From an uncultured bacterium (GTDB lineage: Bacteria; Bacteroidota; Bacteroidia; Bacteroidales; CAIXTV01): 64,000 bases of DNA. Under the pieces are notes generated by a model. The model was not told where the DNA came from. It did no database searches and was given only the letters and a program-made list of their open reading frames with translations. Shown here one piece after another: positions 6,524-25,792 of the stretch. The stretch lies in the NCBI GenBank assembly GCA_903922465.1, contig CAIXTV010000021.1:91-64090 (forward strand), given 5' to 3'. Position numbers and translations under genes: made by a program. Numbering within the stretch: position 1 is the first letter of the stretch; each line of letters starts with the position of its first letter.

Positions 6524-6605
6524 TTTGGTACATATTATTAATGTACCTCTTGAAACTCACATGATCTTGGAGGTAAATGATAGCAAGATACTTGACATTT
6601 ACAAG

Positions 6606-7053: not shown

Positions 7054-7310
7054 TTTTGTGAGGTCATCTTTTTTTTGCATTTGTTAATATACAAATATAG
7101 GCGCAATTATTTATATATCAAATTATTAAATTAAAGATCTCCCCAGAATATTTTTGTTTGACGTTGATTTTTTTTGAAAGAATGATACAATTGTGATAAA
7201 AGTAATCGCTGGGAAATGATTAATGATATAAAGAAAACGTGAAACACAAAGTGATTGAAAGCAGAAAGTTAATTTTACCAATTAAATAAATAAGAAAGGA
7301 ACTATTTTTT

Positions 7311-7886: not shown

Positions 7887-7968
7887 TTTAATTAGTTAGT
7901 CAGTCATGTAAATATTTGAATGAGCATTGCATTGAGTATAAAATAGATAAAGCATTTTAAGGAATAAT

Positions 7969-9420: not shown

Positions 9421-9430
9421 GGAATAGAAT

Positions 9431-10285
9431 ATGGAAAATTCAAATAAACCAAATTCTTATCAAATCGAAGACCCTATAAACAAGGGAGAAGTTATTGTAA
9501 CTTGGATTATGACCCATGCATGTCAAGAAAATTGTGGCTATTGTATTAGTCCAACTAAAACTGATGAACTTTCAACAGAAATTGAGCATTTTACTATTCA
9601 AAATAAACTTATCAAAGATGGACTGACAAAAATGAGATACATTGGAGGAGAACCACTCATAATCAAACATTTTCCAAAATTAATAGCAAGTGCTTATGAT
9701 AGCGGTGTTAATACACGATTGAGCACGAATGGTATTCTTCTTGTGGCTAATAAATTTGATAAGATTAAACCATTTATCAATTCTATTGCTTTGCCATTTG
9801 AATCTCTAAATGATGAGATTAATACACAAATAAGAGGTAATAGATTACATCGACGCATTATATCATCACGAATTGATATGATACAAGACGCTGGAAATAT
9901 TGGTATATTAATTAACACTTGTGTCCATAAAGAAAATATTGATGAACTTGAGGCATTAGGTGGATTTCTTAGTGAAAAAAAAGTAAATCATTGGAAATTA
10001 AGACGATTTAATTCTTCAAGCGGTCGTGGTGCTATACCTAATAAAGATAGATTTGATATTACAGATGAAGCATTTTTTCAAAAAGTAGATTTATTAAAAA
10101 GGACTTATCCTGATTTGAAAATCGATGGAAGATTGCCATCAAAGTTAGAAACACGATTGATGGTTTCTCCACAAGGATTGCTATATAGAATGGTTGGATC
10201 TGACGAAGAAAACGTTCATTATGGAAAAGTAACAGATCGAAAAATAAATGTAGGGATTATATCTGTAAGAGATCGTTGTGATTAA
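9431..10285 (+). CDS. Radical SAM enzyme, viperin/MoaA-like (single 4Fe-4S cluster)
   Basis: The CX3CX2C motif is THACQENCGYC. It is followed by MRYIGGEPLI, TRLSTNGILL, SIALPFESLNDEINTQIRGN, ILINTCVHKENIDE and VNHWKLRRFN. Viperin blocks as I recall them occur in the same order: CNYKCGFC, INFSGGEPFL, VSIVSNGSLI, LAISCDSFDEEVNVLIGRG, FKINSVINRFNVEED, PVRWKVFQCL. There is no C-terminal Cys cluster. Confidence 0.65.
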   Translation: MENSNKPNSYQIEDPINKGEVIVTWIMTHACQENCGYCISPTKTDELSTEIEHFTIQNKLIKDGLTKMRYIGGEPLIIKHFPKLIASAYDSGVNTRLSTNGILLVANKFDKIKPFINSIALPFESLNDEINTQIRGNRLHRRIISSRIDMIQDAGNIGILINTCVHKENIDELEALGGFLSEKKVNHWKLRRFNSSSGRGAIPNKDRFDITDEAFFQKVDLLKRTYPDLKIDGRLPSKLETRLMVSPQGLLYRMVGSDEENVHYGKVTDRKINVGIISVRDRCD

Positions 10286-10993
10286 GTGCAAAATAAAATG
10301 GATATTAAAAATTCTAATACATGTAAGTATTATCTCCACATTGAAGGAATGGATTTAGCTGGGAAATCAACAGTATCTAAAACATTTGCTCAAACAAGTG
10401 AAATAAAATGGATTATCAATGATAAAAGATTAACGCAAGACAATCCGATTTATGATTTTGCTATAGGGCTTTCAAAAAAAGGCGGATTCGACAGTGAAAC
10501 TTTAGGGTACATGTATCTAGCTGCGTTGACACAAGATATAATCAACTTTAAATTAGATGCTAACATTATTCAAGATTCGACTCTTTTATTACGTTCTCTT
10601 AATTATTATAAAAATGTGAATCTAAACAATGAATTAGCTCAAGCCTTTTCTAAACTTATACAGCAACACCCAACACCAAATAAATCTTTCTATCTAACGG
10701 CTGATATTTGTTCGCGACGCCAACGCTTAGCACAAAGAATAGAAATAGAACCTGAAAAATTAACCTCAATGGATCTATTAATTCAGAATGATCCTAACAG
10801 ATTTATGCAGATTGATGAATCTCTTCAAAATATTTCTGTTAATATTTTTAATTCAGAGGTCATTGATACATCAAAAATGAGTATTATGGAAGTAGTTAAA
10901 TGTATACAATTGGGTTGTTCTGCTTCGATACAAAGAATTGTATTAGGCCAAGGTATTACGAACCGGAGGGGTGATGCAAATGGAAGAAAGTAA
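10286..10993 (+). CDS. Thymidylate-kinase / deoxynucleoside-kinase-like P-loop nucleotide kinase
   Basis: The P-loop HIEGMDLAGKST resembles Tmk IEGxxGxGK(S/T)T. A GTG start abuts the rSAM stop, with an alternative ATG at 10298. The 3-prime end overlaps the next gene by 23 nt. Confidence 0.6.
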   Translation: MQNKMDIKNSNTCKYYLHIEGMDLAGKSTVSKTFAQTSEIKWIINDKRLTQDNPIYDFAIGLSKKGGFDSETLGYMYLAALTQDIINFKLDANIIQDSTLLLRSLNYYKNVNLNNELAQAFSKLIQQHPTPNKSFYLTADICSRRQRLAQRIEIEPEKLTSMDLLIQNDPNRFMQIDESLQNISVNIFNSEVIDTSKMSIMEVVKCIQLGCSASIQRIVLGQGITNRRGDANGRK

Positions 10994-11639
10994 TTGGAAT
11001 GAATTATATGCTAAATACATACAAGCTGAATTTAAAAGCTGGGATGAGTATTTTTCTATAAAAATGAAATTAAAAAAAAGATTTCTCAATTTGATTGTTA
11101 AGCACTCAACACCTAATAAGCCCGTATTAGAATGTGGGGCTGGAACTGGTAAATTTTCTGTATATCTTGCTTCGCTAGGTTTCAATACTTACGCTATAGA
11201 TTTAGAACGTGAAATGGTTGAACAAGCAAAACAATTATCAGACCTAGTTTGCCACCAAAACCCGGTAAAAGTTTTACAAGGGGATATTAGCTCTATTCCA
11301 TTTCATAATAAATTTTTTGCAGTATCCCATAGCAGTGGAGTTTTAGAACATTTCAGTGATTCAAAAATCATAGAACTTATTAATGAGCAGTTGCGTGTAT
11401 CGGACACGATTGTATTTAGTGTCCCTTCGCGTTATTTTGATAAAAGAATGCAAGGTAATGAACGTTTTTTGACAAAACAAGAATGGAGAAATATCATTTC
11501 AAACAGTAATGCCAAAATCATCAATGAAACGGGATATCATTATAAAACGCTAAAATATCGAATGTATGATACAATTAAAAATCCAAAACAAATTTTTAAA
11601 CCTATCGCACTGTTTGCGTTTGTTTTAAAGGAGAAATAA
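10971..11639 (+). CDS. Class I SAM-dependent methyltransferase
   Basis: Motif I is VLECGAGTGKFSVYLA. Post-I acidic residue is in AIDLEREMV. GVLEHFSD is typical of the Methyltransf_11/25 type. Confidence 0.8.
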   Translation: MMQMEESNWNELYAKYIQAEFKSWDEYFSIKMKLKKRFLNLIVKHSTPNKPVLECGAGTGKFSVYLASLGFNTYAIDLEREMVEQAKQLSDLVCHQNPVKVLQGDISSIPFHNKFFAVSHSSGVLEHFSDSKIIELINEQLRVSDTIVFSVPSRYFDKRMQGNERFLTKQEWRNIISNSNAKIINETGYHYKTLKYRMYDTIKNPKQIFKPIALFAFVLKEK

Positions 11640-11640
11640 T

Positions 11641-12189
11641 ATGATATATCTAGTACGTCATGGACAAACCGATTGGAATTCAGAAGGAAAGAATCAAGGT
11701 CAAACCGATATTGAGCTTAATCCAGAAGGGATTATACAGGCTGAAATCCTTAAAAAAGAGCTTAAAGATATCGATTTTGATATCGTTTTTTCCAGTCCTT
11801 TAAAACGCGCTTTAAAAACCGCACAAATTATTCATCAGGGCTCTATTATTACTGATAATCGTTTAATGGAAAGATGTAATGGAGAATTAGAAGGTAAATA
11901 TAAAGAGTATCAAGTAGTAGATTTTACAGATCCTAAGGAGACTAGGTTTAATATTGAAGCACTACCTATTTTTAGAAAAAGAATAGTAGATTTTTGGGAT
12001 GATGTATTAAAAAATCATGGTGATAAAAATGTATTAGTTGTTACTCATGCGGGTGTAGGGATATATAGCCAATGTTATTTTAAGGGTGAGCCTCAAAATG
12101 GTGATTATAAACAATATGTGATGAAAAATTGCGATATCATTAAGATAGATACCAGCAGGATTGTATCTTGCTGTAGAACAGGAAAATAA
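11641..12189 (+). CDS. Histidine phosphatase family protein (second copy)
   Basis: IYLVRHGQTDWN and VVTHAGVG. It starts 1 nt after the methyltransferase stop. Confidence 0.85.
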   Translation: MIYLVRHGQTDWNSEGKNQGQTDIELNPEGIIQAEILKKELKDIDFDIVFSSPLKRALKTAQIIHQGSIITDNRLMERCNGELEGKYKEYQVVDFTDPKETRFNIEALPIFRKRIVDFWDDVLKNHGDKNVLVVTHAGVGIYSQCYFKGEPQNGDYKQYVMKNCDIIKIDTSRIVSCCRTGK

Positions 12190-12223
12190 GATGGGGCTCT
12201 TTTTTTAAAATCTGAATAAACGA

Positions 12224-12772
12224 TTAAGATCTATCTTTCTGTATAGTTAATATATGTTCAATATGGGGTTGTAATATCTTTAATTTTTCTTTAATAAAGG
12301 TTGGATATGCTTCGTATTCTTGTAATTTATCAATGGGAAGCCATTCTAATACTTCTTTAATTCCATGTGTATAACTATCGCTGTTAAGTTGCTGTGTTCC
12401 GCGTGATTTCATTAAAAAATAAAAAGTAATTTCATGGCATGATAAACCCTTTAGTAGGCCATCTTCTCGTTTAAAAAAGTTCTCTTGTATAAAAGCAAGG
12501 CGATCTATTTCATAAGCGGTACCTGTTTCCTCTAACACTTCACGCAACACGGCTTGCTCAGCTGTCTCGCCTAAATGAATCCCCCCTCCAATTGAATAAT
12601 AATAATTTTCAGATTCATTTGTTGCAAACAGTATGCAATCATTTTCTATAATGATACCTGCTGCTCTTAATCTAAAACGGTTATTATCTTTGTCTTGGAA
12701 ACAACAATCAGGCGTATGCATGATAATTTCATTAGTTAGTTTCATTATAAAATGATAGGTAATTTTATTCAC
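12224..12772 (-). CDS. Nudix hydrolase
   Basis: Complete Nudix box GGGIHLGETAEQAVLREVLEETG. It is convergent with the rSAM operon. Confidence 0.85.
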   Translation of the reverse strand: MNKITYHFIMKLTNEIIMHTPDCCFQDKDNNRFRLRAAGIIIENDCILFATNESENYYYSIGGGIHLGETAEQAVLREVLEETGTAYEIDRLAFIQENFFKREDGLLKGLSCHEITFYFLMKSRGTQQLNSDSYTHGIKEVLEWLPIDKLQEYEAYPTFIKEKLKILQPHIEHILTIQKDRS

Positions 12773-13048: not shown

Positions 13049-13345
13049 TATACTATGCTAAACTTTATTTACACTTGGAATAGCGTGATTATTCTTGATG
13101 TCCAGAGTTATATTATAATTTTAGTCAAGCCCTTATCGTCAAATAGGAACTTTTTTTATAAGAGACCTCTTTACTTTTTTTTAAAGATCTGTTTTGTTTA
13201 ATGAATGTATCTCTTTTTTAGTATTTTTGTTATGCAATTTTTTTATGTCAAATCTGTCAAAGCACCCATTTAAAGACGAATATTCAATATATTTGAATGA
13301 TAATAAACTTTTTATACCAGAAAAGTTATTAAGATATATTCATAC
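13049..13345 (+). repeat. Diverged direct repeat, copy B (leader plus 5-prime end of the intact TPR gene)
   Basis: See copy A (6606-6915). Confidence 0.75.
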
Positions 13346-14399
13346 ACAATTGAAGTTTATTCTTATTGAAAAATCAAATAAGAAATCATGGGATGCAATC
13401 AGTAATTACCTTACAGGTTATTTTAATAAGGATTTTAAAGAAAATCATTTTGACGTCTTTCAAATTTTGTTTTCTTCTGGCATTGGCATAAGTGCAGCTA
13501 ATATTGAAAGAGCTATAAGAGGCAAAAAAGGAGTTCAGAAAGTAAAAGTAAAATACGAATTAATAGATTTCTTGTGCTATGTTACTTGGGGTAAATCATT
13601 GATAGATAAATTATTTGATAGTAAAGAAAATTGGAATACTAAAATAATTCATGATGTTATTATTCCAGATTATGCATTAGATGAATTGAATAAGGTTAAA
13701 TATAAGGCACAGGACTTTTATAAAAACAGGTTAGAGGTTAATCCAAATAAATCTACCTTACATAATAATTACGCAAAATTACTTTATTCAAAATTTAATG
13801 ATATTAAAGAAGCTGAAAAACATTTTAATTTAGCAATTGAATTAAACCCTCAAAACTATGCGGCTCATTATAACTATGCGGTTTTCTTAAAAAATAAGAT
13901 GGCTGATTATGATGGAGCTAAGAAACACTACGAAATGGCTTTAGAAATTAATCCGTATAATGCGAGTATACATAATAACTATGCAAGTCTTCTCATAGAT
14001 TTTTTCAACGATGTGGATAAGGCTAAGATACATTACGAAAAAGCCTTAGCCAGCAATCCGTTATACTTTTTATATAATTTAAATTATGCTATCTTGCTTT
14101 CAGATTATCTTAATGAAAAGAAATTGGCAATTGTTTATTTTAAAAAGACCTTAGATATTGATCCTGAAAATTGTAATGCCCATCATCATTATGCAAATTT
14201 TCTTGCAAATAAACTAAACGATATGGGGGAAGCTAATAAACATTATAAAAGGGCTTTAGACATTAATCCTGAAAATATTACGGTTCACAAGAATTATGCG
14301 ATTTTTCTTACTGACAAACTGAATGATCCTAAGGAAGCGGATTTCCACAACAAGGAAGCACTCAGATTAATCAAAAACAGAATTAAGAAAACATCTTGA
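13245..14399 (+). CDS. TPR-repeat protein with a unique ~190-aa N-terminal domain
   Basis: About seven 34-aa repeats of the form NP.N...H.NYA.FL......D..A..HY..AL.INP. The ORF track starts at a TTG at 13194. ATG 13245 (MSNLSKHPF) is the likelier start. Confidence 0.8.
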   Translation: MSNLSKHPFKDEYSIYLNDNKLFIPEKLLRYIHTQLKFILIEKSNKKSWDAISNYLTGYFNKDFKENHFDVFQILFSSGIGISAANIERAIRGKKGVQKVKVKYELIDFLCYVTWGKSLIDKLFDSKENWNTKIIHDVIIPDYALDELNKVKYKAQDFYKNRLEVNPNKSTLHNNYAKLLYSKFNDIKEAEKHFNLAIELNPQNYAAHYNYAVFLKNKMADYDGAKKHYEMALEINPYNASIHNNYASLLIDFFNDVDKAKIHYEKALASNPLYFLYNLNYAILLSDYLNEKKLAIVYFKKTLDIDPENCNAHHHYANFLANKLNDMGEANKHYKRALDINPENITVHKNYAIFLTDKLNDPKEADFHNKEALRLIKNRIKKTS

Positions 14400-14470
14400 C
14401 TTATTTTTTTTAATGAATAATATAGTTTTTACGGGGAATAGAAATTCTATATTGAATTCTATTTCAAAAG

Positions 14471-14505
14471 CCCGCTTGGAATACCAAATTCCGGCGGGTT
14501 TTATT
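14471..14505 (+). terminator. Rho-independent terminator after the TPR gene
   Basis: The interrupted stem cccgc-tt-ggaat / attcc-g-gcggg is followed by TTTTATT. Confidence 0.55.
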
Positions 14506-14750
14506 ATTATAGGAAATTCTTTCTATAGAAACATTTATTCCTAATATACAATTGAAATAATATTTTGATTTTTTTAATTCCAAATCCGATTCAGTCATAT
14601 ATTAAATAATTCATTACTTTTGGAGGATGTTAAAGTAATACAATATATGCATAAGCGAAATTTTTTATTTGGATAAGGAAAACTGAGTTTTTCTAAAATA
14701 TTTATCGATTCTACCCATTATTTTTGACTTGAATTTTAAATCCTTAAACC

Positions 14751-16130
14751 ATGAAACTATTTGATCTTTTATATGAAAAGGGATTTCCTAAACTCACATT
14801 CAAAATTCTCTTAAAATTAAAAGTTGGAGATTATTTCGTAATTGCTCCACCCAATTCACATTCGTTCATAATCAAAAATAATGGTTTTGTTTTTAAAAAA
14901 CAATTTCGTTCAGATGAATTCTTTTTTTTATCTTCATTTGATTTACATGAAATTGAAATGATGCACTTCATTACAGTTGCAACAATAAACAGTCAGGCTT
15001 ATATTTTATCAGAAAACTATTTTATTAAAGAATCTATTTCAACCTATCTCGATATCGCGACAAACCCAACTAAATATCAAGACACTTTTAAAGTGTTTGA
15101 TACTTATTCCCTTCCACATGTTATTGAAAGTATTGGATACCTTAATCAAAATTATGCATACGGAAAATTAAATTCAATCAGAGAATTTCTTTCTGCAAAG
15201 AGCAATGACTATTCTCTTATAGACTTCATTTGGCAAAATATTTTCACTACCAACATCACAGATTATGATGCTGCTGAAATTCTTATGCAGAATCATAAAT
15301 TCAATATTCCAAATTCTGTAAGCATTATTATTCCATGCTTTGAATCTAACGACACAATTTCTAATACAGTTGAATCGGCCTTATTAGCATTATCCCTTCT
15401 TCCTCAATCATCTTTCAAAGAAATAATTGTTGTTGATGATTCAAGAACTCTCAATGTAAAATTCAAACAAAAGGAAATCAAGATAATTTCTTCTGATTTT
15501 AAGTTGCATTGTGGGGGAGCAAGAAATGTAGGAATGTCGGTAGCAAAAGGTGAAAATATTTTTTTAATTGACTCTGACACCTATATTGCCCAAAATTATT
15601 TGATAAATCATATCCTCCGACATAACTTTTTCCCAAACTTTATTTCGGTATCTATGCGAGAACAAATAAAAAATATCTCTATCCCAAAAGTAGAGCCTAA
15701 AATTAATTCAGACTCAAGGGTTGAAAAAACGTACAGCACAGAATGGAAAACATTGAACAGTATTTCTGAATCAACAACTGTTATGCCATTAAGTGAAACT
15801 AATAAATTCAAACACTTTGGTTTTGGGAAAAAACTTGGACCAACTGATTTACCTTTTATGGTTAAAGGAAATAATGCTTCATTTTCACGAAAGTCAATTG
15901 GTAATCTTTCATTCTGCAATAAATATGAAGGGTGGGGACCCGAAGATGTTTCTTTTGCAGCAAATCTTATTTCAAAAGGCTTTTTTGTATTACCGATTTT
16001 GTCAACAGGTGTATTTCATGTTGAACATTCGCCTCGTTCAGGAAGTTATGAACAAAAGGAAAAAGAATTGAAATTTAACTTAAATGTTCATGATTCAATT
16101 CTAAATAGTCACCCATACGAAACATGGTAA
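14751..16130 (+). CDS. Family 2 glycosyltransferase with an unknown ~190-aa N-terminal extension
   Basis: GT-A motifs VSIIIPCFESNDTISNTVESAL, EIIVVDDSR, GGARNVGM and IFLIDSDT (DxD). Confidence 0.75.
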   Translation: MKLFDLLYEKGFPKLTFKILLKLKVGDYFVIAPPNSHSFIIKNNGFVFKKQFRSDEFFFLSSFDLHEIEMMHFITVATINSQAYILSENYFIKESISTYLDIATNPTKYQDTFKVFDTYSLPHVIESIGYLNQNYAYGKLNSIREFLSAKSNDYSLIDFIWQNIFTTNITDYDAAEILMQNHKFNIPNSVSIIIPCFESNDTISNTVESALLALSLLPQSSFKEIIVVDDSRTLNVKFKQKEIKIISSDFKLHCGGARNVGMSVAKGENIFLIDSDTYIAQNYLINHILRHNFFPNFISVSMREQIKNISIPKVEPKINSDSRVEKTYSTEWKTLNSISESTTVMPLSETNKFKHFGFGKKLGPTDLPFMVKGNNASFSRKSIGNLSFCNKYEGWGPEDVSFAANLISKGFFVLPILSTGVFHVEHSPRSGSYEQKEKELKFNLNVHDSILNSHPYETW

Positions 16131-17257
16131 TGCAAACAAAAAATATTGACTTTGCATTTACTGACGGTTGGCATCCAACGGTTAATCCTTCCTCTCGAAT
16201 GCCTATTTATTATTTACGGCACAAGCAATTATTTCCGGGACACCCAATAATTCTAAATGAATTTCCAAGAACTAAAGGAGGTTCAACGTTTAGGTTTATA
16301 AGATTTCAAGAACCAACCTCACTTCAAAACATTATTGTAAAAGCTCAAAATACATTATTCGAGTTTATGCCTTGGTGGTTACCTTCCACATTATCAGATA
16401 GTTTTCTTTTTAAAATTTACGATAATATTCTAAAAAGTGATTCTGGAATAACATCATCTGAAAGACTTTGCATTGATGAATTTTACAGTGAATTAAAGGT
16501 AAAAGTATCTTCTGAATTATCAATTGGAGAATTGTTGAACTCAATAAATTTTGACAGATATAAAATCATTTTACCTAATTTGCCTGAAATCAATTGTATA
16601 AGTTTTTCAAAAAGTGTTTTCAAAAATATTTTTCAAGACATACTATCAATTAATCAAGAGAAGTTTTTTTATATTTTAAATCAACTTTGCAAAAGGCAAG
16701 AAATCACCTATTTGACGAAAGTTGCATTTTGCAACGACACTGATTATAATATATACAGAATTAGTTGGGTAGTGCCTGAAAGGCATTTTCACAAAATTAA
16801 GATTGATGTAAAGACGGGTGTAAATATTGGTAGTAGAGAAACCTATTCTTATGAAAGTTTTATCTCTGACATTGAATATGGACGTATTGTTTTAAGTTCA
16901 AAAATTTCATGCATAGCTGAATCACTTGCCTCACTAAGTGGTAAATTCTTTTTCCATTTTGGTAATACATATAATCATTTTGCAGAAATAGCAGCAATTT
17001 TTTCAGATAGCAGAGATTATAATTCACAAACAAAGTTTGTAAATTATTTTAATGATTATGAAGACACATGGAATTATGCTTACTTAAGATTTTCTGATGA
17101 TTATCCAATTCATTTATTTGACCTATTACCGTTGAATGACAACACAGTATTTCAGAAAATATATTCAATTGTGAATAATAGCTTTGAAACCAAATCTCCG
17201 TTTTGCATCCCAGCTACAATTAACTTGGCAGAATCAATCAACGCAGTAAATATCTAA
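16124..17257 (+). CDS. Hypothetical protein (no recognisable motif)
   Basis: 377-aa ORF. It overlaps the GT2 gene by 7 nt and abuts the next gene, so it is part of the operon. Confidence 0.55.
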   Translation: MVMQTKNIDFAFTDGWHPTVNPSSRMPIYYLRHKQLFPGHPIILNEFPRTKGGSTFRFIRFQEPTSLQNIIVKAQNTLFEFMPWWLPSTLSDSFLFKIYDNILKSDSGITSSERLCIDEFYSELKVKVSSELSIGELLNSINFDRYKIILPNLPEINCISFSKSVFKNIFQDILSINQEKFFYILNQLCKRQEITYLTKVAFCNDTDYNIYRISWVVPERHFHKIKIDVKTGVNIGSRETYSYESFISDIEYGRIVLSSKISCIAESLASLSGKFFFHFGNTYNHFAEIAAIFSDSRDYNSQTKFVNYFNDYEDTWNYAYLRFSDDYPIHLFDLLPLNDNTVFQKIYSIVNNSFETKSPFCIPATINLAESINAVNI

Positions 17258-17914
17258 ATGATACAGCAGAAACGACCATATTTGATTGAAGGATTAGATT
17301 GCTCTGGCAAAAAATCTGTTGCTCAACTTGTAAAAGCACAACTTGAAAATGAGTTTCATGTGCCAGTTAAATTAGTTGTTGGCTCATTTGTAAAATCTCC
17401 AATAAAGACTTTTGACAGAATTATTTCAAATCCAAGTAGGTTTTCAAAAAACAGTAGAATAGTTAAAAATCTAAAACAAATTATTTATACAATTGCACCA
17501 GTTATTGATTTCTATTTCTACATACCAAGTAAAAATAAAATTACAATCAAAATCAGTTCACATTTACGTGCTGAAGCCAAAGCTCTAATAGACAAAGATT
17601 TATTTATGATAAAATACTTTAAGAAGTTCAGAAATGTTTCAGTTAAATATCAGGGAGCAGTACTTCTTACATCATCTTTTGAAACAAGAATTTTAAGACA
17701 CAGGGCTGATGTAGGTTCAGATAAAACTAAAAAGGATGAAACAAAAAGATTTTATCAAAACAATCAGCAATTATTTCAAGAGTGGAACAATGCTTTGACA
17801 GATTTAATGAAACATGAAATTAGTTCTGTGAAAATTATCGAGAATGATAATATAAATTTAGAATATATTGCGGATGAAATAATAAACCACATTAAAAGTG
17901 TATACGGACAATGA
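17258..17914 (+). CDS. Thymidylate-kinase-like P-loop kinase (second copy in the island)
   Basis: P-loop YLIEGLDCSGKKS. It has similar size and layout to 10286-10993. Confidence 0.5.
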   Translation: MIQQKRPYLIEGLDCSGKKSVAQLVKAQLENEFHVPVKLVVGSFVKSPIKTFDRIISNPSRFSKNSRIVKNLKQIIYTIAPVIDFYFYIPSKNKITIKISSHLRAEAKALIDKDLFMIKYFKKFRNVSVKYQGAVLLTSSFETRILRHRADVGSDKTKKDETKRFYQNNQQLFQEWNNALTDLMKHEISSVKIIENDNINLEYIADEIINHIKSVYGQ

Positions 17915-18990
17915 AAAAATTTATTTGGCATTTCTACTATTCAAAAAGATTCAGTTTCTATCCGCCGGATTATTATACTATTGGCTTAGGTGGTAGTGAA
18001 TCTGTACTTGTTCTCCTCACTAAATACCTTGCTTCACTTAACCAAGAAGTTCACGTGTTTAATGCTTGTTTTAAACCTGGTATTTATGATAATGTTCATT
18101 GGCATTTACTAACTGATATTAATACGTCGCAAATTCCTGATATTTTTGTTGCAGTTAGATTTGAAGATTCGGTTTTAAAGAATTGTAATGCTAAAGTTAA
18201 CTTATTTTGGATGCTTGATAACAGAGTTGCGGGAGCGTTGAAATTTAAGAGTCTCAATTTGCCAAATTCAAAAATTATTGTTGCATCTGATGCAATGACA
18301 TCATTACTACTTCAAGAAAATATCCCAAGTGATTATCTTATAAAATTGTTTCATCCGATTGAAAACAATATTAAACAATATCAAACACAAACAAATCGAA
18401 AATTAATTTGTCTTTATTCATCAATGCCAACAAGAGGGCTAGATGTAGCATTGGATTGCTGGGTATCTATCCAAAGAGTAGTAAAAGATGCTGAATTATG
18501 GATTACAAACGGTTATGTTCCTTGGGGATTTACAACTGAAGAAGCTGAAGATAAATATAGCCCTTATTTAATTCGTATATCTAAAATGCAAACTGAAGGA
18601 CTATCAATAAAATATTTGGGAGTACTCGCAAGAAGTGACTTCGAAAATTTACTTAGTGAAATTGCAATTCTATTTTATCCTTCCCGTTTTCCTGAAATGT
18701 TTTGTCTCATAGCTGCTGAATGTTCAATGTATGGAATTCCAATTATCACAAGCGACATATTCGCAATGCAAGAGAGAGTTGTAAATAATAAAACTGGATA
18801 TTTAATCAAAGGGGATATTGATCATCTGGAAACTCAAAATGAATTTATTTATAAAACGATTTCCCTTCTTCGTAACATTGACCTACGTGAAAATATGGGT
18901 AATAATTCGAAAGACTTAGCTAAAAATTTAGCAGGCAAAATCATTGCATCAAAATGGATAGACTTTGCAAAAAAAATAATATACAATTAA
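17911..18990 (+). CDS. GT-B fold glycosyltransferase (family 4/1-like)
   Basis: The C-terminal donor-binding region is PSRFPEMFCLIAAECSMYGIPIITSDIFAMQERVVNNKTGYLI (E-x7-E type). An ATGA overlap links it to the upstream gene. Confidence 0.7.
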   Translation: MKKFIWHFYYSKRFSFYPPDYYTIGLGGSESVLVLLTKYLASLNQEVHVFNACFKPGIYDNVHWHLLTDINTSQIPDIFVAVRFEDSVLKNCNAKVNLFWMLDNRVAGALKFKSLNLPNSKIIVASDAMTSLLLQENIPSDYLIKLFHPIENNIKQYQTQTNRKLICLYSSMPTRGLDVALDCWVSIQRVVKDAELWITNGYVPWGFTTEEAEDKYSPYLIRISKMQTEGLSIKYLGVLARSDFENLLSEIAILFYPSRFPEMFCLIAAECSMYGIPIITSDIFAMQERVVNNKTGYLIKGDIDHLETQNEFIYKTISLLRNIDLRENMGNNSKDLAKNLAGKIIASKWIDFAKKIIYN

Positions 18991-19001
18991 ATTTAATATT
19001 T

Positions 19002-19496
19002 ATGAAAACAGAAAAAAAAATTGTTTTTACTTCAAAACCTCATGGAATAAGAGCCGTAGGTTTAGTATTTATTGATGACCAAATTCTTCTAATGCGGAGA
19101 GAAAGTTCAACTAAAAAGTATTTTACCTTTCCAGGTGGTGGTGTCGAACCTAATGAGACGGTGGAAGAAGCCGTTGTTCGTGAAATAAAAGAAGAATGTA
19201 ATTTTAATGTAAGAGTAATTCGTCTTCTATATCACCATGATTTAATAAACGATAGTGATCATTATTTTTATTTATGTGAATATATAAATGGCAACCTCCA
19301 ATTAGGTGGTGAGGAGCTTGAAGAAAATAAAAGAGGTGATATTCATGAACCACTTTTGTTTCCTGTGGCCAAACTTAAAGAAATTACGCTATACCCTTTA
19401 GAAGTTCGCGATTGGGTCATTGCTGATTTCCCTAATCACTTTCATAATGAGGTAAGAAGATTAAATATCCCTGTTTCTGAATTGAGAAATGTATAA
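19002..19496 (+). CDS. Nudix hydrolase (second copy)
   Basis: The Nudix box is GGGVEPNETVEEAVVREIKEECNF, with the final G replaced by N. The ORF track starts at 18954. The internal ATG at 19002 avoids overlap with the GT4 gene. Confidence 0.75.
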   Translation: MKTEKKIVFTSKPHGIRAVGLVFIDDQILLMRRESSTKKYFTFPGGGVEPNETVEEAVVREIKEECNFNVRVIRLLYHHDLINDSDHYFYLCEYINGNLQLGGEELEENKRGDIHEPLLFPVAKLKEITLYPLEVRDWVIADFPNHFHNEVRRLNIPVSELRNV

Positions 19497-20152
19497 TGAA
19501 TTATATGAATGATGTTCATTTAGGTATCCTTTTGAAACCTGATGCAGTTTCTGAAAGCACCCTCTTTTCTTGGGAGCAATTTTATGACTGTCTAGTATCT
19601 CTTAATTCCATTTTATCATCCGATCATTCTACTTCAAATAAATTTCTTCTCCCAAACTCATTGAATGCATACAATGGTTCTTTACGGCAAATTTCAGAAA
19701 GGGGCATATCGGAAATTTCTTTTTCATTTCCTATTTTAAACAAATTACAAATTATTAACACTATTTCGAAGACTATTATCGAGGTTAAAAATTCTAATAC
19801 TACATATTATATTTCAGAAATTATCCAGCGACTTATTTCTCTATTCACTTTTCGTATAGAGCATTATCATGATTTTGTCTTTGACGAAAATGATTGTATT
19901 ACTATTTACTCAACAATTCGCCAAAACGATATTCAGTTATTTAAATCAATTCAATTATATTTGGAAAATAATAAATGTAAAATATATTTTCTTTCAGGAG
20001 ATCAAAACATTACTGCAATTGAATATATAAAGACAATTGTGCGTTATTTTTTTAAATATAAAAATGGGGAAAAGCATCGTCTTGAAAATTATATTCATTC
20101 ATTAGACGAAGTTGAAACTAAATATTTTTTGAAAAAATTACTATCAAATTAA
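19496..20152 (+). CDS. Hypothetical protein, possibly a divergent nucleoside-diphosphate-kinase-like fold
   Basis: N-terminal LGILLKPDAV resembles NDK IIKPDAV. C-terminal ENYIHSLDEVETKYF resembles the NDK active-site region N..HGSDS.E.A..EI..FF. The middle is not alignable by eye. Confidence 0.3.
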   Translation: MNYMNDVHLGILLKPDAVSESTLFSWEQFYDCLVSLNSILSSDHSTSNKFLLPNSLNAYNGSLRQISERGISEISFSFPILNKLQIINTISKTIIEVKNSNTTYYISEIIQRLISLFTFRIEHYHDFVFDENDCITIYSTIRQNDIQLFKSIQLYLENNKCKIYFLSGDQNITAIEYIKTIVRYFFKYKNGEKHRLENYIHSLDEVETKYFLKKLLSN

Positions 20153-20995
20153 TTCAACTAAATATTGTAACAAATGGTTAAATACTGTGCCACAGTTATA
20201 TGCAGCAACATAACCTTGAGTATAAAAACTTGGCTCAAAATCCATTTTGTATTTCCCCAATCTATTTGTAATTCCATTTATAAAAAGAAATTCTTTATTA
20301 GTTACCAATCTTACTAATCCATGTGTTGTATCTAAAGATAATTCTTCCAGATTCTTATTATATTCATTAAATACATTTATTGCATCAAAATCAGCCCATG
20401 AATAGTCATCAAAGTTTATAATATTTATTACACTTAATCCGACAATACTTTTACTAACCTTAAAACATTTTCTTTTACCACCAACATTTGGGCATTGCAA
20501 TATATTATTTAATATCAATTCACATTTTTCATCGTCTATTTTCAACCTTTCTATAGTGCTTGATTTAATGATGTTTATACAATCATCATTTAGTATTAAG
20601 TTATTTTTTGACTTATTCTTATAAGGATTATATATACAAGTATGTCCACCTATTAATACTGAGCCATTGCATATATCCGAATAATTTGAAGTTCCAGTTC
20701 CTATTGAGATCGTTAGATCAAAATCATTCTTGAATATTTTATTTAATACTTTGAATTTTTGTTTTGAATTTGTTTCAAAATAATCCTTTTTTATATAGTC
20801 CTGTAAACAAAACATTTCTATTTTCACATCAATATATTTCATATTTATGCAAATTGTTTCTCTATTGAGTGTTTTATTTTTTACATTTTTATTTTTCAAC
20901 CTACTATCTTGGTTTATGATAGAAGAATTCAAAGCATCTGTAAAAGCACCAAACTCCCATTCTTTGTTGCAAATTATTGCAATTGTTTTATGCAT
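20144..20995 (-). CDS. Hypothetical protein, possibly nucleoside phosphorylase / nucleosidase (PNP_UDP_1) fold
   Basis: Block order resembles MTA/SAH nucleosidase. KTIAIICNKEWEF compares with KIGIIGAMEEEV. DLTISIGTGTSN compares with DVIINTGSAGGL. FLFINGITNRLG compares with FVVVRAISDVAD. This is a weak by-eye comparison. Confidence 0.3.
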   Translation of the reverse strand: MHKTIAIICNKEWEFGAFTDALNSSIINQDSRLKNKNVKNKTLNRETICINMKYIDVKIEMFCLQDYIKKDYFETNSKQKFKVLNKIFKNDFDLTISIGTGTSNYSDICNGSVLIGGHTCIYNPYKNKSKNNLILNDDCINIIKSSTIERLKIDDEKCELILNNILQCPNVGGKRKCFKVSKSIVGLSVINIINFDDYSWADFDAINVFNEYNKNLEELSLDTTHGLVRLVTNKEFLFINGITNRLGKYKMDFEPSFYTQGYVAAYNCGTVFNHLLQYLVELI

Positions 20996-21878: not shown

Positions 21879-22361
21879 TTAGTTTTGTATAGTTTCTTTT
21901 GTAATACGCATATTTTGCGCAAGTTCGCTTACTTTTATGCGTAAGTCCTTGGCGATATTTGCGTTAGCCGAATTATAAATAATACCTTTTTCAATACATT
22001 TCCCCTCCTTATCCACTAAAGTAAACATTGCACCAGATATTCGAAAGAAAAGCTTTTGCTGACCCCTTCGCTTTTCAGGGGTATCAAGCAGATCACCTTT
22101 CTGAGACAAGACCTCAATTAGTTTTTTTTCCATCAATGTATGAATAGCTTCATTTATGGCTCTTCTTGAAGTACCTGTTTTCAAAACTAACTGACTACTA
22201 GAAATCCAGTCTAATTCTTTTCTTTCTGATTTTGTTTTAATGTCTTTCCAACCAAGAGTCTGCCGAATTATTATCAACAGCACCTTAAGTTCTGCCATCT
22301 TTAGCTCTTTCATATATACATCAAACAAAATGTTTGGAACCGGTGTCGTATTGAAATTCAT
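21879..22361 (-). CDS. Replication protein O-like winged-helix protein (phage/plasmid replication initiator N-domain)
   Basis: FNTTPVPNILFDVYMKELKMAELKVLLIIIRQTLGWKD...WISSSQLVLKTGTSRRAINEAIHTLMEKKLI matches the Phage_rep_O pattern (F..iPN.l.......L...ElrVll.iiRkTyGf.k....is.sql...tG.s...v..a...L....i). Confidence 0.6.
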   Translation of the reverse strand: MNFNTTPVPNILFDVYMKELKMAELKVLLIIIRQTLGWKDIKTKSERKELDWISSSQLVLKTGTSRRAINEAIHTLMEKKLIEVLSQKGDLLDTPEKRRGQQKLFFRISGAMFTLVDKEGKCIEKGIIYNSANANIAKDLRIKVSELAQNMRITKETIQN

Positions 22362-22405
22362 AATTTTTCTAATTTGGAATTTATAAGGAATCTACTTTGT
22401 GAATT

Positions 22406-22600
22406 TTATTTATCGTAATTAATCACAGGTGCAATAGGTTCTCTTTCCATGATGTAATAATCTACATCAGGAATATGAAAAAGCCTTAAATACATATTTC
22501 CTTTTTCAGTTATTTTCATAGCCCCTGCTTTATAAGAGATTATTTTATTTTCTCCATCTTTCTCGTAAACCTTTTTTGTGTAAACATCAAATATTTGCAT
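22406..22600 (-). CDS. Hypothetical small protein
   Basis: 64-aa ORF. Confidence 0.35.
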   Translation of the reverse strand: MQIFDVYTKKVYEKDGENKIISYKAGAMKITEKGNMYLRLFHIPDVDYYIMEREPIAPVINYDK

Positions 22601-23083
22601 GATTATTTTTAAAGTTTATTAATAATGACGACCGCTGAAACTATCCTGCTTTTTATTAAGCAAGTTTTATTCACAGCGTCCTAAGGAGTTGTGGCTATCT
22701 TTTTTTGAAAGGTTAGACTGATTTTACAATGTCGTCTCTTATTTATCATTAGATAAATAATCCCTTTTCAGGCAGAGAAAATCAAATTCATTTTATTTGT
22801 AAATTTGTCTCCACTCACAACTCCATAGATCGCTATGCATAAAGCTTTAACATCTGATACTACATGTTATTTAAACCTTATAATTCAGTACTTCATATAA
22901 CCAATATTGTGCGACATGGTATTTCCTTTAAATAAAGATTTAAAGCCTCTTTCCCCTGTCTATGGTTTAATATAAAAAATATGAATACAGTAAAGTGCGT
23001 ATAAATAACAGATACTTCAGAAAGCGTTTTGAATGAACTATTACTCTTAAAGCGTATCAAATACATAAAATTTATGCAAGTGC

Positions 23084-23962
23084 TTATACTGGGCTAAAAT
23101 ACGCCTTTGCACTCCTCTCAAAGTCCATATCTGAGTATTGCTCATAAATAAAGGTTGATATAGGGTTTAAATGCCCTAATCCCTTTTGAATAAATGACAA
23201 AGGAGCATTTTGATCTCTTCTCTTATGAGCCCATCCATGTCGGAAACTATGAGGAGTAATTTTCTCAATTATTCCTGCCCTTTTTGCATAATGTTTGACC
23301 ATTCTTTCAACACTTCTTGTCGTCAATCTTGTATTCCAACTTCTATTGAAATTTTGTCCTACAAATAAAGCTGAAGCTTTATTGTGGTTGAATAATTCAA
23401 CTCTAATGGGCAAATATCTTAACAAGAGTTGATGTGTTTCTTCTGACCACAATATTGTTCTCATGTTAGCAGTTTTTTTTGTTGCAATAACTGCTCGACG
23501 ATTATTTGTATCGATTTGCGAAATATCTAAATCGCAAAGTTCAGATACTCGAACACCTGTATCCCAAAGCATTCGTGTTATTACTTTATCCCTAAGAAAG
23601 TGAAATTCATTTTCAGGAATAATAGAGATTATTTTTTCAAACTCTTCTTCTTTGATAGCCCTATGCGATTTTGCCATTCCCCTTTTCCTTCTTATAAGAG
23701 ATGGTGGTAAACAGTTATAATTTTGATCTCTATAAAACTGAAAAAAGTTTTTTATAATTACAGTTGCATATTGCAAACTGTAAGGACTATAACGTGCTTT
23801 TATCCAGTTCTGATAATGCACAATATCTGTAATTGTGTAATCTTCTAATGGTTTATCACCACATATCTCAATTAGGCGCTTAAGCCAAATTTTATATGTA
23901 ATGCTTGCTTTCGGGGAATGAATTCCCTTCCAGTCTAAATACTCATGTATTTTTGTCTCCAT
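23084..23962 (-). CDS. XerC/XerD-like tyrosine recombinase (second recombinase in the island)
   Basis: 292 aa. Motifs are LWDTGVRVSELCDLDI (Arg), HSFRHGWA (HxxR) and GLGHLNPISTFIYEQY (His...Tyr). Confidence 0.85.
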   Translation of the reverse strand: METKIHEYLDWKGIHSPKASITYKIWLKRLIEICGDKPLEDYTITDIVHYQNWIKARYSPYSLQYATVIIKNFFQFYRDQNYNCLPPSLIRRKRGMAKSHRAIKEEEFEKIISIIPENEFHFLRDKVITRMLWDTGVRVSELCDLDISQIDTNNRRAVIATKKTANMRTILWSEETHQLLLRYLPIRVELFNHNKASALFVGQNFNRSWNTRLTTRSVERMVKHYAKRAGIIEKITPHSFRHGWAHKRRDQNAPLSFIQKGLGHLNPISTFIYEQYSDMDFERSAKAYFSPV

Positions 23963-24309
23963 AAATATACAAGACCCGCCAGAGACGAATCAAGCGAGCC
24001 TTGTATATGCACATAAACTAACACTTTTTTCCTTTGAAGTAAAGAAATTAGCTATCTGCACAATGCTTCGTTGTTCGTCTCTGTTCCGGTTTTCCCGGAA
24101 AGACCCTTTAAGGGCAACGGTTCTTTATTAAATTGTTAAATCACTAATAATGTTCGACTTTCTAATCGTATCATAGGTATATTTTTCTTGTCAAGTCTTC
24201 AAATATTACAAAAATGGTTATCCCCTTTTTTATATGATTGAGATATGGACATTTCAAATCTTTCAATTATACTGTCTTTCGATAAAGTTCATTGATAAAT
24301 ACATAGCAT

Positions 24310-24801
24310 ATGATTAAAAAAAATAATCTAAAAAATCAGTTGAAAGATTTTGAAACAAGTTTGGAGTTAGCAGAAATAAAAGTTTCTTACAAGAGTAAGC
24401 AAAGGGAAAAAGTAAAGGTAGCTAGTTCACGTGATGCATTTGATATTCTCTACCATATTTATAATATGGATACTATTGAATATCAGGAACAATTCTTTAT
24501 GCTTTTATTAAACAGAGTGAATCATGTTTTAGGATGGGTTAAAATTAGCATGGGAGGAACAGCAGGAACCGTTGTTGATCCAAAGATTGTATTTTCTTTG
24601 GCTTTACAGACTAATGCTCATGGCATCATTCTTTCTCATAATCATCCTTCTGGAAATTTAAGACCAAGTGATAATGACATTAATTTGACCAAAAAATTAA
24701 GCGCATCAGCTTCTTTACTTGAAATTAAATTACTTGATCATATTATTGTTGCTCCTGAAGGTGCTTATTATAGCTTTGCAGATGAAGGAAATTTGTTTTA
24801 A
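24310..24801 (+). CDS. radC: RadC-like JAB/MPN domain protein
   Basis: JAMM motif ILSHNHPSGNLRPSDNDINLTKKL. Confidence 0.85.
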   Translation: MIKKNNLKNQLKDFETSLELAEIKVSYKSKQREKVKVASSRDAFDILYHIYNMDTIEYQEQFFMLLLNRVNHVLGWVKISMGGTAGTVVDPKIVFSLALQTNAHGIILSHNHPSGNLRPSDNDINLTKKLSASASLLEIKLLDHIIVAPEGAYYSFADEGNLF

Positions 24802-24825
24802 ATTCGAAACTACAACTGAAAAAAT

Positions 24826-24858
24826 AGCTCGGGTATGATAATATCCGGGCTTTTATTT
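24826..24858. terminator. Bidirectional terminator between convergent radC-like and 24869-25792 genes
   Basis: An 11-bp stem agctcgggtat / atatccgggct (two G-U pairs) is flanked by an A-run upstream and a T-run downstream. Confidence 0.55.
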
Positions 24859-24868
24859 TATCCTAAAT

Positions 24869-25792
24869 TTAGGTTTTAGATGATAGTTTTCTTGTTGGGG
24901 TATATATTTTTTGATTTAAGTATTCTACAAACCAGTTATCATATTCACCTTCATCTAATTTATTCAAAATTTGTTCCCAACTTAACTTGGTGAAATTTCC
25001 ATTTTCTGAATTTAACGATTTTTCAAAATGCAATAACTTATCCGCGTTTTTATCAGTGAACAATTTTTTAAGTCCCAAATTAATAAGTTTATATTTTTTC
25101 TCTCCACATAATTTTGAAGCAAAAACCCAATTTCTAAATAGTTCATAATGGCCACTCTCAAACAATTTTGCATTATCTAAATTTGGAATTAAATACTTAT
25201 TAAACTTGGATTTGTCCTCAAATACTTCATTTGCACTCAAATATTTTACTTCTATAAATATGAGTTGTTTACTTAATTTTAATATCACATCAGGTTCTGT
25301 CCGTCTTGAGGGATCCTCATTAAATGAATCCGATATTTGAATGAACTTATTATGAAAATTATCATCGATTGCAGTGGAGCATATATTCGTACCCCATAAA
25401 TATATATCATATTTAAGGTCTTCACTATCGATTTCTAATAATTTGAGTAAATCTTTTAATTTATTTTTGAAAACGAAATATTTAAAAAAACTCCAAGTTA
25501 ATGCATCTTCTGAAGTTGAAAAAGCAAATTTGTTTTTTTTACTTATACGATTTATTGAATTGATTGAGTTATTCAAGACATTATCTAATCCTGGTCTAAG
25601 TAACATCGGGACATTATCACTGTATTTATGATAAATCAAAGTAGGATTTTTACTTGCATTTGAATATCTTATCATGCATTTTTTGCATTCTCTTAAACAG
25701 TCTTGATAAGAGGATGCTGGTTTAACCTCACCTACTCGAGCAATTAAGTATTCACCACAAAAAGGACATTTTATTTTTTCTAAGCTTCCCAT
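24869..25792 (-). CDS. Zn-ribbon plus PD-(D/E)xK nuclease-like protein
   Basis: The N-terminus has CPFCGE...CLRECKKC (four Cys). The C-terminal half has SEDALTW ... EPDVILKL...LIFIEVKY (E ... D ... ExK arrangement). Confidence 0.5.
   Translation of the reverse strand: MGSLEKIKCPFCGEYLIARVGEVKPASSYQDCLRECKKCMIRYSNASKNPTLIYHKYSDNVPMLLRPGLDNVLNNSINSINRISKKNKFAFSTSEDALTWSFFKYFVFKNKLKDLLKLLEIDSEDLKYDIYLWGTNICSTAIDDNFHNKFIQISDSFNEDPSRRTEPDVILKLSKQLIFIEVKYLSANEVFEDKSKFNKYLIPNLDNAKLFESGHYELFRNWVFASKLCGEKKYKLINLGLKKLFTDKNADKLLHFEKSLNSENGNFTKLSWEQILNKLDEGEYDNWFVEYLNQKIYTPTRKLSSKT

Follow-up and report, generated by a model that had tools for sequence, protein, structure and literature searches.

The stretch of DNA analysed here, hereafter the window, comprises 64,000 nucleotides (nt) of contig CAIXTV010000021.1 from an uncultured bacterium of the Bacteroidales (assembly GCA_903922465.1), and at positions 14751-20152 it contains six plus-strand genes that form a tightly packed cassette. 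As listed in Table 1, they encode, in this order, a glycosyltransferase (GT2), an orphan protein of 377 amino acids (aa; U377), a kinase predicted to have the Tmk/deoxynucleoside-kinase (dNK) fold, a GT4-type glycosyltransferase of the GT-B class (GT1), a Nudix protein and a protein that probably has the nucleoside diphosphate kinase (NDK) fold; a further orphan gene converges on the end of the operon. The junctions measure -7, 0, -4 and -1 nt in the table of open reading frames (ORFs), and the convergent gene shares 9 nt with the end of the operon. At the GT1/Nudix junction, the ATG at 19002 leaves a gap of 11 nt and the first ATG, at 18954, gives an overlap of 37 nt; the former is favoured as the start, because the orthologue at another locus, L001 (loci elsewhere are designated by L and a number), aligns from window residue 17. 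The ORF coordinates and junctions claimed in a first-pass annotation of the window were reproduced exactly, and its junction of about 11 nt holds with the ATG at 19002. Because long ORFs are improbable at 29% GC, which is the GC content of the cassette region and of the remainder of the window, and because the block recurs at 13 other loci, the six-gene arrangement is far beyond chance. No hydrophobic segment of 19 residues was found in the products of the six cassette genes or of the convergent gene, and no Wzx, Wzy or sugar-nucleotide synthesis gene lies inside the six-gene block. An Rfam search of the window and the 13 loci at the gathering threshold returned tRNAs only, with no RNA leader ahead of any cassette, and a promoter and terminator scan, which the AT-rich DNA makes uninformative, returned 60 sites against 59.6 expected.

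Looking up contigs and scanning GTDB genomes and metagenomes recovered further copies of the cassette, which were annotated with hidden Markov models (HMMs) built from the components. Together with the window, 14 distinct complete or near-complete cassettes were obtained, all of which contain GT2, U377, the kinase, the Nudix gene and GT1. The NDK-like gene is present in all but L016, the contig of which ends just past the Nudix gene and does not include it. The cassettes span 29-72% GC (33-72% for the 13 other loci), and they come from Actinomycetota (Nocardiopsis and Streptomyces), from metagenome-assembled genomes (MAGs) of Hydrogenedentota and Verrucomicrobiota, and from low-GC metagenome contigs of no assigned lineage. 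A search of 2.9 million IMG/VR viral contigs yielded no relative of U377 or of the kinase, and U377 is likewise without relatives among 50,697 phage records (INPHARED) and 72,556 plasmid records (PLSDB). A description of this gene combination was not found in the searchable literature, which yielded analogies only, and PADLOC, Pfam and NCBIfam contain no model of it.

A gene for GTP cyclohydrolase II (GCH II) accompanies 11 of the 14 cassettes and often overlaps the end of GT1, to which it is translationally coupled. Compared with E. coli RibA, the 10 aligned GCH II sequences conserve the zinc cysteines C54, C65 and C67 as well as Y105 and R128. The gene is absent from the window copy, L001 and L006, and these three match L016, which has GCH II upstream, in gene order and Nudix clade. 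In actinobacterial cassettes, the first gene encodes a fusion of NADAR (COG3236) to GCH II (L011, positions 6441-7580, Streptomyces; L023, positions 6474-7577), and the GCH II of L007 carries an N-terminal extension of 150 aa without a Pfam match. The version in L009 (5165-13393; also L010 and L018) is the most abundant, being indexed in >1,300 sample blocks from public assemblies; it has two U377 paralogues, two NDK-like paralogues and an extra pyruvate-kinase-like gene. It adjoins genes for an adenylation-carrier protein, a phosphopantetheinyl transferase and a BtrH_N protein and an NTP_transf_5 gene. A distant variant (L014, 4341-11939; L024, 6403-11921) keeps GT2, kinase and GT1, has the NDK-like and Nudix genes divergently transcribed and lacks U377; in L024, GTP cyclohydrolase IB (PF02649) stands in place of GCH II. 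The distant variant starts with a protein of 193-207 aa, which in L014 shows a weak C-terminal ribbon-helix-helix match (Pfam RHH_1, E 0.035), and a peptide of ~58 aa that looks membrane-spanning follows GT1. Opening of the GTP ring is thus most likely a recurrent theme of the gene set rather than of the window copy itself.

U377 is the signature gene of the cassette, and its product contains the invariant motifs TDGWHPT.NPSSRMP, LNE.PR..GG.T.R, PWW, HFGNTY, D.WN and YP.HL, and matched nothing in Pfam, NCBIfam, PADLOC, PHROGs or the PDB sequences. A word search of 5.8e9 proteins detected only 5 clusters of this family, and a full HMM search of 1.84e9 representatives gave 28 matches (13 at E<=1e-30) and turned up solely the family itself, including its most distant member, P0108, which has no Pfam domain. 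One match, P0111, was dismissed as a low-complexity artefact. An AlphaFold2 (AF2) model built from 5 sequences was mediocre (pLDDT 62, pTM 0.70), and a Foldseek search of PDB and BFVD with it found nothing better than E 0.07 and TM 0.18. The strongly conserved motifs suggest that U377 is an enzyme, and it is presumed to perform the unique catalytic step of the pathway.

The kinase could be placed by structure. Its P-loop, EGLDCSGKK, is invariant in 78 homologues and aligns to the P-loop of Tmk, and R104, R144, R147 and H148 are among the other invariant or near-invariant residues. The match to Pfam Thymidylate_kin (PF02223) covers the P-loop only and scores 16.4 bits against a cut-off of 27; the score for TIGR00041 is 16.2 bits against a cut-off of 83. 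The family consists of 78 clusters (~80 at 90% identity), among which are further members from Streptomyces, Kitasatospora and Streptosporangiaceae. An AF2 model built from the 78 homologues reached a pLDDT of 92.9 and gave 257 Foldseek matches in PDB at E<=1e-3, headed by the deoxyadenosine kinase 8puu, the dTMP kinases 4rzx, 4eaq and 2ccg, AbmG and deoxycytidine kinase (probability 1.0, TM 0.6-0.68). The protein therefore appears to have the Tmk/dNK fold yet to lie outside the Tmk orthologue group, and it is probably not a bona fide dTMP kinase. With this predicted fold, the substrate may be either a nucleoside or a nucleoside monophosphate. A fusion of the kinase with the NDK-like protein occurs in L002.

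In the NDK-like protein, the residues K14-P15-D16, R69, E73, K179-T180, R183, N198 and H201 are invariant among 7 homologues; H201 aligns by motif with the catalytic His of NDK in N-x-x-H, and relatives read MIVIKPDGI...RNLIHVCED. An insertion of ~85 aa after the first strand has its own invariant residues, R69, E73 and F76. The window protein did not match Pfam, where the gathering score of PF00334 was not reached, and the homologue in the distant variant L014 matches Pfam NDK with an E-value of 3.9e-4, below the gathering score. When PDB was searched with a profile of the seven sequences, the NDK 6ay1 was the top match (E 1.7e-4) and NDKs made up 17 of the 21 matches. The gene probably defines a divergent subfamily of the NDK fold rather than a canonical Ndk. 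The Nudix protein is clearly a Nudix hydrolase by its match to PF00293 (62.2 bits against a cut-off of 21.1); its Nudix box is intact (REIKEE; pattern GX5EX7REUXEE), and G45, G46, E49, R60, E61, E64 and E65, numbered from the ATG at 19002, are invariant. Its profile matched MutT, RppH, NUDT15 and NudI-type NTP pyrophosphohydrolases in PDB, and the protein matches the PADLOC single-gene candidate PDC-S07 at 6.7e-15. The window, L001, L006 and L016 share one Nudix clade, clade A, and in L007 the Nudix protein is fused to the NDK-like protein.

Both glycosyltransferases are recognized by Pfam. GT2 matches PF00535 over residues 191-291 (48.9 bits against a cut-off of 23.3), and its catalytic domain begins at about residue 187, preceded by an N-terminal domain of ~185 aa; residues 1-185 have zero Pfam matches. 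The DxD motif (D274/D276) is invariant, and the C-terminus carries the conserved block GWGPED...H..H.PRSGS. In PDB, a profile of 13 GT2 sequences matched the chondroitin synthase K4CP best (7.7e-18), followed by GalT1 and TarP/TarS; the nearest solved relatives are chondroitin and heparosan synthases, TarP/TarS and PglI-type enzymes. GT1 matches PF00534 (Glycos_transf_1; 40.3 bits against a cut-off of 26.4); E262 and E270 of its EX7E motif are invariant, and its N-terminal (acceptor) domain is highly conserved. The best PDB match of its profile was MshA (3c4q, 1.2e-11), followed by WbaZ, 7fg9/8x3q, BshA, 6kih and tetrahydrobiopterin glucosyltransferase. The arabinosyl- and glucosyltransferases that act on phage DNA are reported to match PDB entries 3c4q, 3mbo, 6kih, 5zfk, 7fg9 and 8x3q (PMC13326640). 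The nearest structures of GT1 are either enzymes with small-molecule acceptors (MshA, BshA and tetrahydrobiopterin glucosyltransferase) or entries that phage DNA glycosyltransferases also match, whereas those of GT2 act on polymers; for neither enzyme does the comparison fix the acceptor.

These results bear out most of the assignments that the first-pass annotation had made. A GT2 with a novel N-terminal extension agrees with the PF00535 match and the lack of Pfam matches in the first ~185 aa, a GT-B enzyme with the PF00534 score above the cut-off and the EX7E motif, and a Nudix protein with PF00293 above the cut-off and the intact box. Its Tmk-like kinase is right at the level of the fold, as indicated by the high-confidence model and Foldseek, and so is its NDK-like protein, as indicated by the PDB profile and the invariant KPD...N-x-x-H; neither is the canonical enzyme. 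The convergent gene, which it had described as nucleoside-phosphorylase-like, fared differently, as none of the sequence methods used (Pfam, NCBIfam, PDB and hhalign) gave a signal. Its product has no match in Pfam or NCBIfam at E<0.1, and none in PDB when the threshold was E<=1 for the sequence alone or E<=10 for its profile; an hhalign comparison with E. coli MTAN and DeoD was no better than shuffled controls. Among 5.8e9 proteins, a single homologue was found; it is 54% identical and its gene occupies the corresponding place in L001, and no other cassette annotated has the convergent gene. It is probably an accessory of the sub-lineage of the window and L001 only; as part of the cassette core it was ruled out, because its conservation does not extend beyond the nearest relative.

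The cassette is part of a large insertion (Table 1). A 24/26 direct repeat of the 3' end of tRNA-Leu(taa), which is followed by an integrase gene, lies far downstream, and the tRNA and the repeat delimit an integrative island of ~54 kb that holds the cassette and, on its upstream side, a prokaryotic viperin (pVip) operon as cargo. MutS and tRNA-Gly belong to the host flank of the island. The radical S-adenosylmethionine (rSAM) protein of the pVip operon matches the PADLOC model pVip, 'viperins associated with kinases', at 6.7e-30. The operon also contains a Tmk-like kinase, two histidine phosphatases, a GFO/IDH/MocA-like oxidoreductase, an S-adenosylmethionine (SAM)-dependent methyltransferase and a convergent Nudix gene, and this expanded operon may be a variant that tailors the 3'-deoxy-3',4'-didehydro (ddh) nucleotide further. 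A gene for a tetratricopeptide repeat (TPR) protein separates the two operons; at L011, a divergent neighbour of 455 aa has merely a weak TPR_4 match. The stretch just downstream of the cassette holds a gene resembling phage RepO together with a second tyrosine integrase, RadC and REase-ARP, and the island may be composite or nested. They are followed on the minus strand by an NTP_transferase gene (sugar-phosphate nucleotidylyltransferase-like), which is the only nucleotidyltransferase gene near the cassette, and by genes for a metallo-beta-lactamase-fold protein and a glycerate kinase; this group is not conserved with the cassette elsewhere. The remaining cargo includes a type I restriction-modification (R-M) system and a pair of QueC-like and KAP NTPase genes, which we take to be reminiscent of Qat systems.

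Table 1. Features of the window. Positions count from the first nucleotide of the window; the genes of the cassette and the convergent gene are listed first.
Feature	Position	Strand	Length	Remark
GT2 gene	14751-16130	+	459 aa	
Orphan gene U377	16124-17257	+	377 aa	
Tmk/dNK-fold kinase gene (predicted fold)	17258-17914	+	218 aa	
GT4-type GT-B gene (GT1)	17911-18990	+	359 aa	
Nudix gene	18954-19496	+	180 aa	probable true start ATG 19002
NDK-fold gene (predicted fold)	19496-20152	+	218 aa	
Convergent orphan gene	20144-20995	-	283 aa	
MutS	1024-3648			host flank
tRNA-Leu(taa)	3811-3898			
Integrase	4032-5447	-		
pVip operon	7311-12772			upstream of cassette
rSAM protein	9431-10285			in pVip operon
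TPR protein	13194-14399		401 aa	between pVip operon and cassette
RepO-like gene to REase-ARP	21879-25792			
Second tyrosine integrase	23084-23962			
RadC	24310-24801			
REase-ARP	24869-25792			
NTP_transferase to glycerate kinase	27153-30499	-		
GmrSD	30490-32328			
DUF3732 protein	32433-34466			
QueC-like gene	37468-38808			
KAP NTPase	39645-41525			
AAA_21 protein	41749-44436		895 aa	
HsdM (type I R-M)	45637-47205			
HsdR (type I R-M)	48032-50320			
ArdC	50980-51981			
Type IV secretion system (T4SS) coupling protein	53394-54839			
Direct repeat of tRNA-Leu 3' end	58004-58029			24/26

Mobile-element genes accompany the cassette at other loci as well. In an all-against-all comparison of the flanks, recombinases and transposases were the only recurrent neighbours: serine recombinases in L006 and L008, and transposases in L002, L007 and L009, where a Mutator transposase and, in tandem, three tyrosine integrases lie past the cassette. 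The cassette of L008 is the cargo of an integrative and conjugative element (ICE), and a gene for the anti-restriction protein ArdC adjoins the cassette in L001. Direct adjacency to a defence system was observed at two loci, namely the window, with pVip, and the actinobacterial contig L023, where genes for a short prokaryotic Argonaute (PADLOC pAgo_I, 2e-174) and a REase-APAZ protein (4e-98) at 13142-15615 are convergent to the cassette at a distance of ~200 bp. When 20 flanking proteins (18 from other loci and 2 from the window) were compared with PADLOC, a defence system was found only in L023, and a weak E1-like match was obtained in L006. Of the products of the six cassette genes and the convergent gene, six had no match in PADLOC-DB v2, the exception being the Nudix protein with PDC-S07.

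We consider 14751-20152 to be one copy of a self-contained, horizontally mobile cassette that would make a glycosylated, GTP-derived non-canonical nucleotide, which is probably used in biological conflict; judged from the sequence evidence, the probability of this reading is roughly 0.4. All steps of the pathway were inferred from homology and gene association. The route would start with GCH II, which opens GTP to form 2,5-diamino-6-ribosylamino-4(3H)-pyrimidinone 5'-phosphate (DARP); for the window copy, the host RibA presumably supplies this activity. DARP is an unstable mononucleotide, which NADAR/COG3236 hydrolyses to the free aminopyrimidine, and in the actinobacterial versions the fused NADAR N-glycosidase may likewise free the pyrimidine. 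U377 would then perform the pathway-specific transformation at the level of the mononucleotide or the base, and the product would be re-phosphorylated by the Tmk/dNK-fold kinase and then by the NDK-fold protein, from the nucleoside monophosphate (NMP) through the diphosphate (NDP) to the triphosphate (NTP). These two steps are probably consecutive, because the two proteins are fused in L002 and this is the simplest reading of the fusion; the pyruvate-kinase-like gene and the duplicated NDK-like gene of L009 would provide more capacity for the conversion of NDP to NTP. The MutT-type Nudix protein is likely to be a (d)NTP pyrophosphatase that either feeds the monophosphate into the route or clears a competing or toxic triphosphate. 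Because a fusion of two enzymes working on the same nucleotide would be futile, the Nudix and NDK-like proteins probably act on different nucleotides, and the dCTPase, dNMP-kinase and NDK systems of phages T4 and RB69 handle different nucleotides as well (PMC13326640). Finally, the GT-A and GT-B enzymes would attach two sugars to generate a glycosylated non-canonical nucleotide or nucleoside. The catalytic motifs DxD, EX7E, Nudix box and P-loop are all intact.

The likeliest role of such a product would be in conflict, as an antiviral or antibacterial nucleotide analogue that is independent of the pVip operon, because the cassette is mobile-element cargo and lies in a defence-laden island beside a pVip-kinase system. 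Of the whole proposal, the biological role is least secure; mobility, patchy phyletic spread and the two defence adjacencies point to conflict. A more specific version is unlikely in our estimation: a chemical conflict system in which U377 remodels a guanine nucleotide opened by GCH II, the kinases rebuild the triphosphate and the glycosyltransferases glycosylate it, so that the analogue poisons the polymerases of phages or competitors or the base enters nucleic acid as a new hypermodified base.

Several observations weigh against the proposed conflict pathway. As the window copy, L001 and L006 lack GCH II, entry through GTP and DARP is an assumption at the window locus, and as U377 has no detectable fold, the key step is left blank. 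The order of the steps is also an assumption, and the fusion of the NDK-like and Nudix proteins would be futile if both used the same nucleotide. The nearest solved relatives of GT2 act on polysaccharides or teichoic acids, and the acceptors of glycosyltransferases are not readable from sequence. With regard to defence, no PADLOC model was matched save the generic Nudix candidate, most of the other loci have no recognizable defence neighbours, so that a defence role rests on two adjacencies and on mobility, and the Streptomyces copies are surrounded by ordinary chromosomal genes. Finally, at two loci, L002/L003 and L013, the cassette adjoins clusters for exopolysaccharide (EPS), with EpsG, Bac_transf-GT4, Polysacc_synt_2 and ManC at the former and GT4, EpsG, a pyruvyl transferase and a Wzx-type flippase at the latter.

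This last observation raises the question of whether the cassette is an add-on for decoration of a surface glycan (capsule, EPS, O-antigen or teichoic acid), in which the glycosyltransferases act on a lipid-linked polymer and the nucleotide enzymes adjust the supply of nucleotide sugars or guanine nucleotides. Besides the two EPS loci, the solved relatives of GT2 and the position of the distant variant L014 near a Polysacc_synt flippase would fit this function, and the colanic-acid cluster includes a Nudix enzyme, GDP-mannose hydrolase. The composition of the cassette, however, argues otherwise: initiating transferase, flippase or exporter, polymerase and sugar-nucleotide genes are missing from the conserved part of all 14 cassettes, no gene for a flippase, a polymerase, an initiating transferase or export lies near 11 of them, that of the window included, and the cassette contains neither membrane segments nor a gene for sugar-nucleotide synthesis. 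No role in glycan assembly is known for GCH II, a Tmk/dNK-fold kinase, the NDK-like protein or U377. Moreover, mobile DNA often inserts into variable glycan loci; L002 is flanked by what reads as an IS66-type transposase, and L013 by HTH, UmuC and S24 genes. Decoration of a surface glycan is therefore very doubtful. The first-pass annotation had likewise set the block apart from conventional polysaccharide loci, and both the missing Wzx, Wzy and sugar-nucleotide genes and the strong tie to mobile elements agree with it. It had named embedding in capsule or lipopolysaccharide loci as evidence against its proposal, and this point is answered in part: the cassette is directly beside EPS genes at two loci and is not embedded among them at either.

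A closer formal analogy is nucleic-acid hypermodification, in which the Nudix protein makes the NMP, U377 and/or GCH II alter the base, the kinases rebuild the NTP and the glycosyltransferases glycosylate the base in DNA or RNA, possibly shielding the mobile element from restriction. Phage gene clusters that join an NTP pyrophosphatase such as dCTPase, a base modifier acting at the NMP level, a Tmk-like kinase and GT-B transferases follow the same logic, and their GT-B enzymes match the same PDB entries as GT1 (PMC13326640). The NTP-pyrophosphatase type of the Nudix protein and its fusion to the NDK-like protein, which is sensible if the two act on canonical and modified nucleotides, respectively, are in keeping with this function, as are ArdC beside the L001 cassette and in the island of the window and the ICE that carries L008. 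On the other hand, the viral, phage and plasmid collections searched gave no match, and the cassette lacks a ThyA-like enzyme, a DNA polymerase and a base-exchange enzyme. Modification at the level of the nucleotide pool would hit the entire host chromosome, a role specific to transfer fits poorly with the stable copies on the chromosomes of several Streptomyces, and GCH II uses ribo-GTP and destroys the purine ring. Hypermodification is accordingly rather unlikely. Much less probable still is that a single larger pathway unites the cassette with the pVip operon and the TPR gene, as the first-pass annotation had suggested for the adjacent rSAM operon. They are adjacent in the window and both operons contain a Tmk-like kinase and a Nudix gene, but no rSAM gene, pVip operon or TPR homologue occurs in the 13 other cassettes or in L014 and L024 (the upstream side of L001 is cut off, so that this locus is uninformative on co-occurrence with pVip), and the rSAM protein matches the stand-alone pVip model. 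Membership of the cassette in the pVip pathway and of the TPR gene in the cassette was therefore rejected. The other suggestion of that annotation, a glycosylated nucleotide or nucleoside as product, remains the best one and is strengthened by the presence of GCH II in most relatives, although not in the window copy.

If the proposed pathway to a glycosylated GTP-derived nucleotide is correct, the genes define a conserved and so far unannotated cassette that joins an orphan family, a new NDK subfamily, a dedicated kinase, two glycosyltransferases and GCH II. The U377 family is new, as are the insertion-bearing NDK subfamily and the entry point through GCH II. The modified-nucleotide theme of pVip and of phage hypermodification would then extend to glycosylated guanine-derived chemistry on cellular mobile elements, and the chemistry of the riboflavin pathway (DARP and NADAR) would gain a role in bacterial secondary or conflict metabolism. 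Should the more specific conflict system described above prove real, with either of its outcomes, no earlier pathway of this sort would be known outside viruses, nor one that begins with GCH II. As a compact and soluble operon of six or seven genes, it could also supply novel nucleoside analogues and glycosyltransferases that accept nucleotides or bases.

Among known systems, phage hypermodification, as in glucosylated hydroxymethylcytosine (hmC) of T4 and arabinosylated 5-hydroxycytosine (5hoC) of RB69 and DLP3, likewise combines a pyrophosphatase, a base modifier acting on mononucleotides, a Tmk-fold kinase and a GT-B enzyme, the nearest structures of which (MshA 3c4q, BshA 3mbo, 6kih, BH4 glucosyltransferase 5zfk and 7fg9/8x3q) overlap those of GT1 (Lee et al., NAR 2026, PMC13326640). 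In contrast to the phage systems, the cassette lacks a thymidylate-synthase homologue, with U377 being an unrelated orphan, has a Nudix protein instead of MazG or dCTPase, and adds its own NDK-fold protein, a GT-A enzyme and usually GCH II; it was found in cellular genomes and integrative elements only, and in none of the viral collections searched. pVip with a nucleotide kinase resembles the cassette as a small mobile module that pairs a Tmk-like kinase with an enzyme converting a nucleotide to an analogue, whereas the cassette has neither an rSAM enzyme nor a PADLOC pVip match, does not co-occur with pVip elsewhere, and its predicted chemistry is glycosylation with or without opening of the purine ring.

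The entry into the pathway finds its counterpart in plants and in riboflavin metabolism. In the proposed route to vicine, GCH II is followed by hydrolysis by COG3236/NADAR and by glucosylation (bioRxiv 10.1101/2020.02.26.966523). The same sequence of GCH II, DARP, NADAR and glycosyltransferase would underlie vicine and convicine of faba bean, together with the RibA-COG3236 overflow route of riboflavin biosynthesis, and the actinobacterial cassettes carry a NADAR-GCH II fusion and glycosyltransferases. The plant pathway differs in that it lacks U377 and is not known to include steps by a kinase, an NDK or a Nudix enzyme, and the window copy differs in having neither GCH II nor NADAR. To our knowledge, no bacterial pyrimidine glycoside has been described from a cluster of the NADAR-GCH II and glycosyltransferase type. 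In hexosyl-nucleoside antibiotics of the blasticidin S, mildiomycin and amipurimycin type and in thuringiensin, an N-glycosidase releases the free base, and a glycosyltransferase and a kinase step lead to a sugar-modified nucleoside or nucleotide toxin. The model of the cassette kinase also matches AbmG of albomycin biosynthesis; homology to these systems is at the level of superfamilies at most, and the cassette core has no genes of the CGA-synthase type or for peptide assembly. The components of the cassette belong mostly to known superfamilies, and its logic of nucleotide tailoring and glycosylation has precedents.

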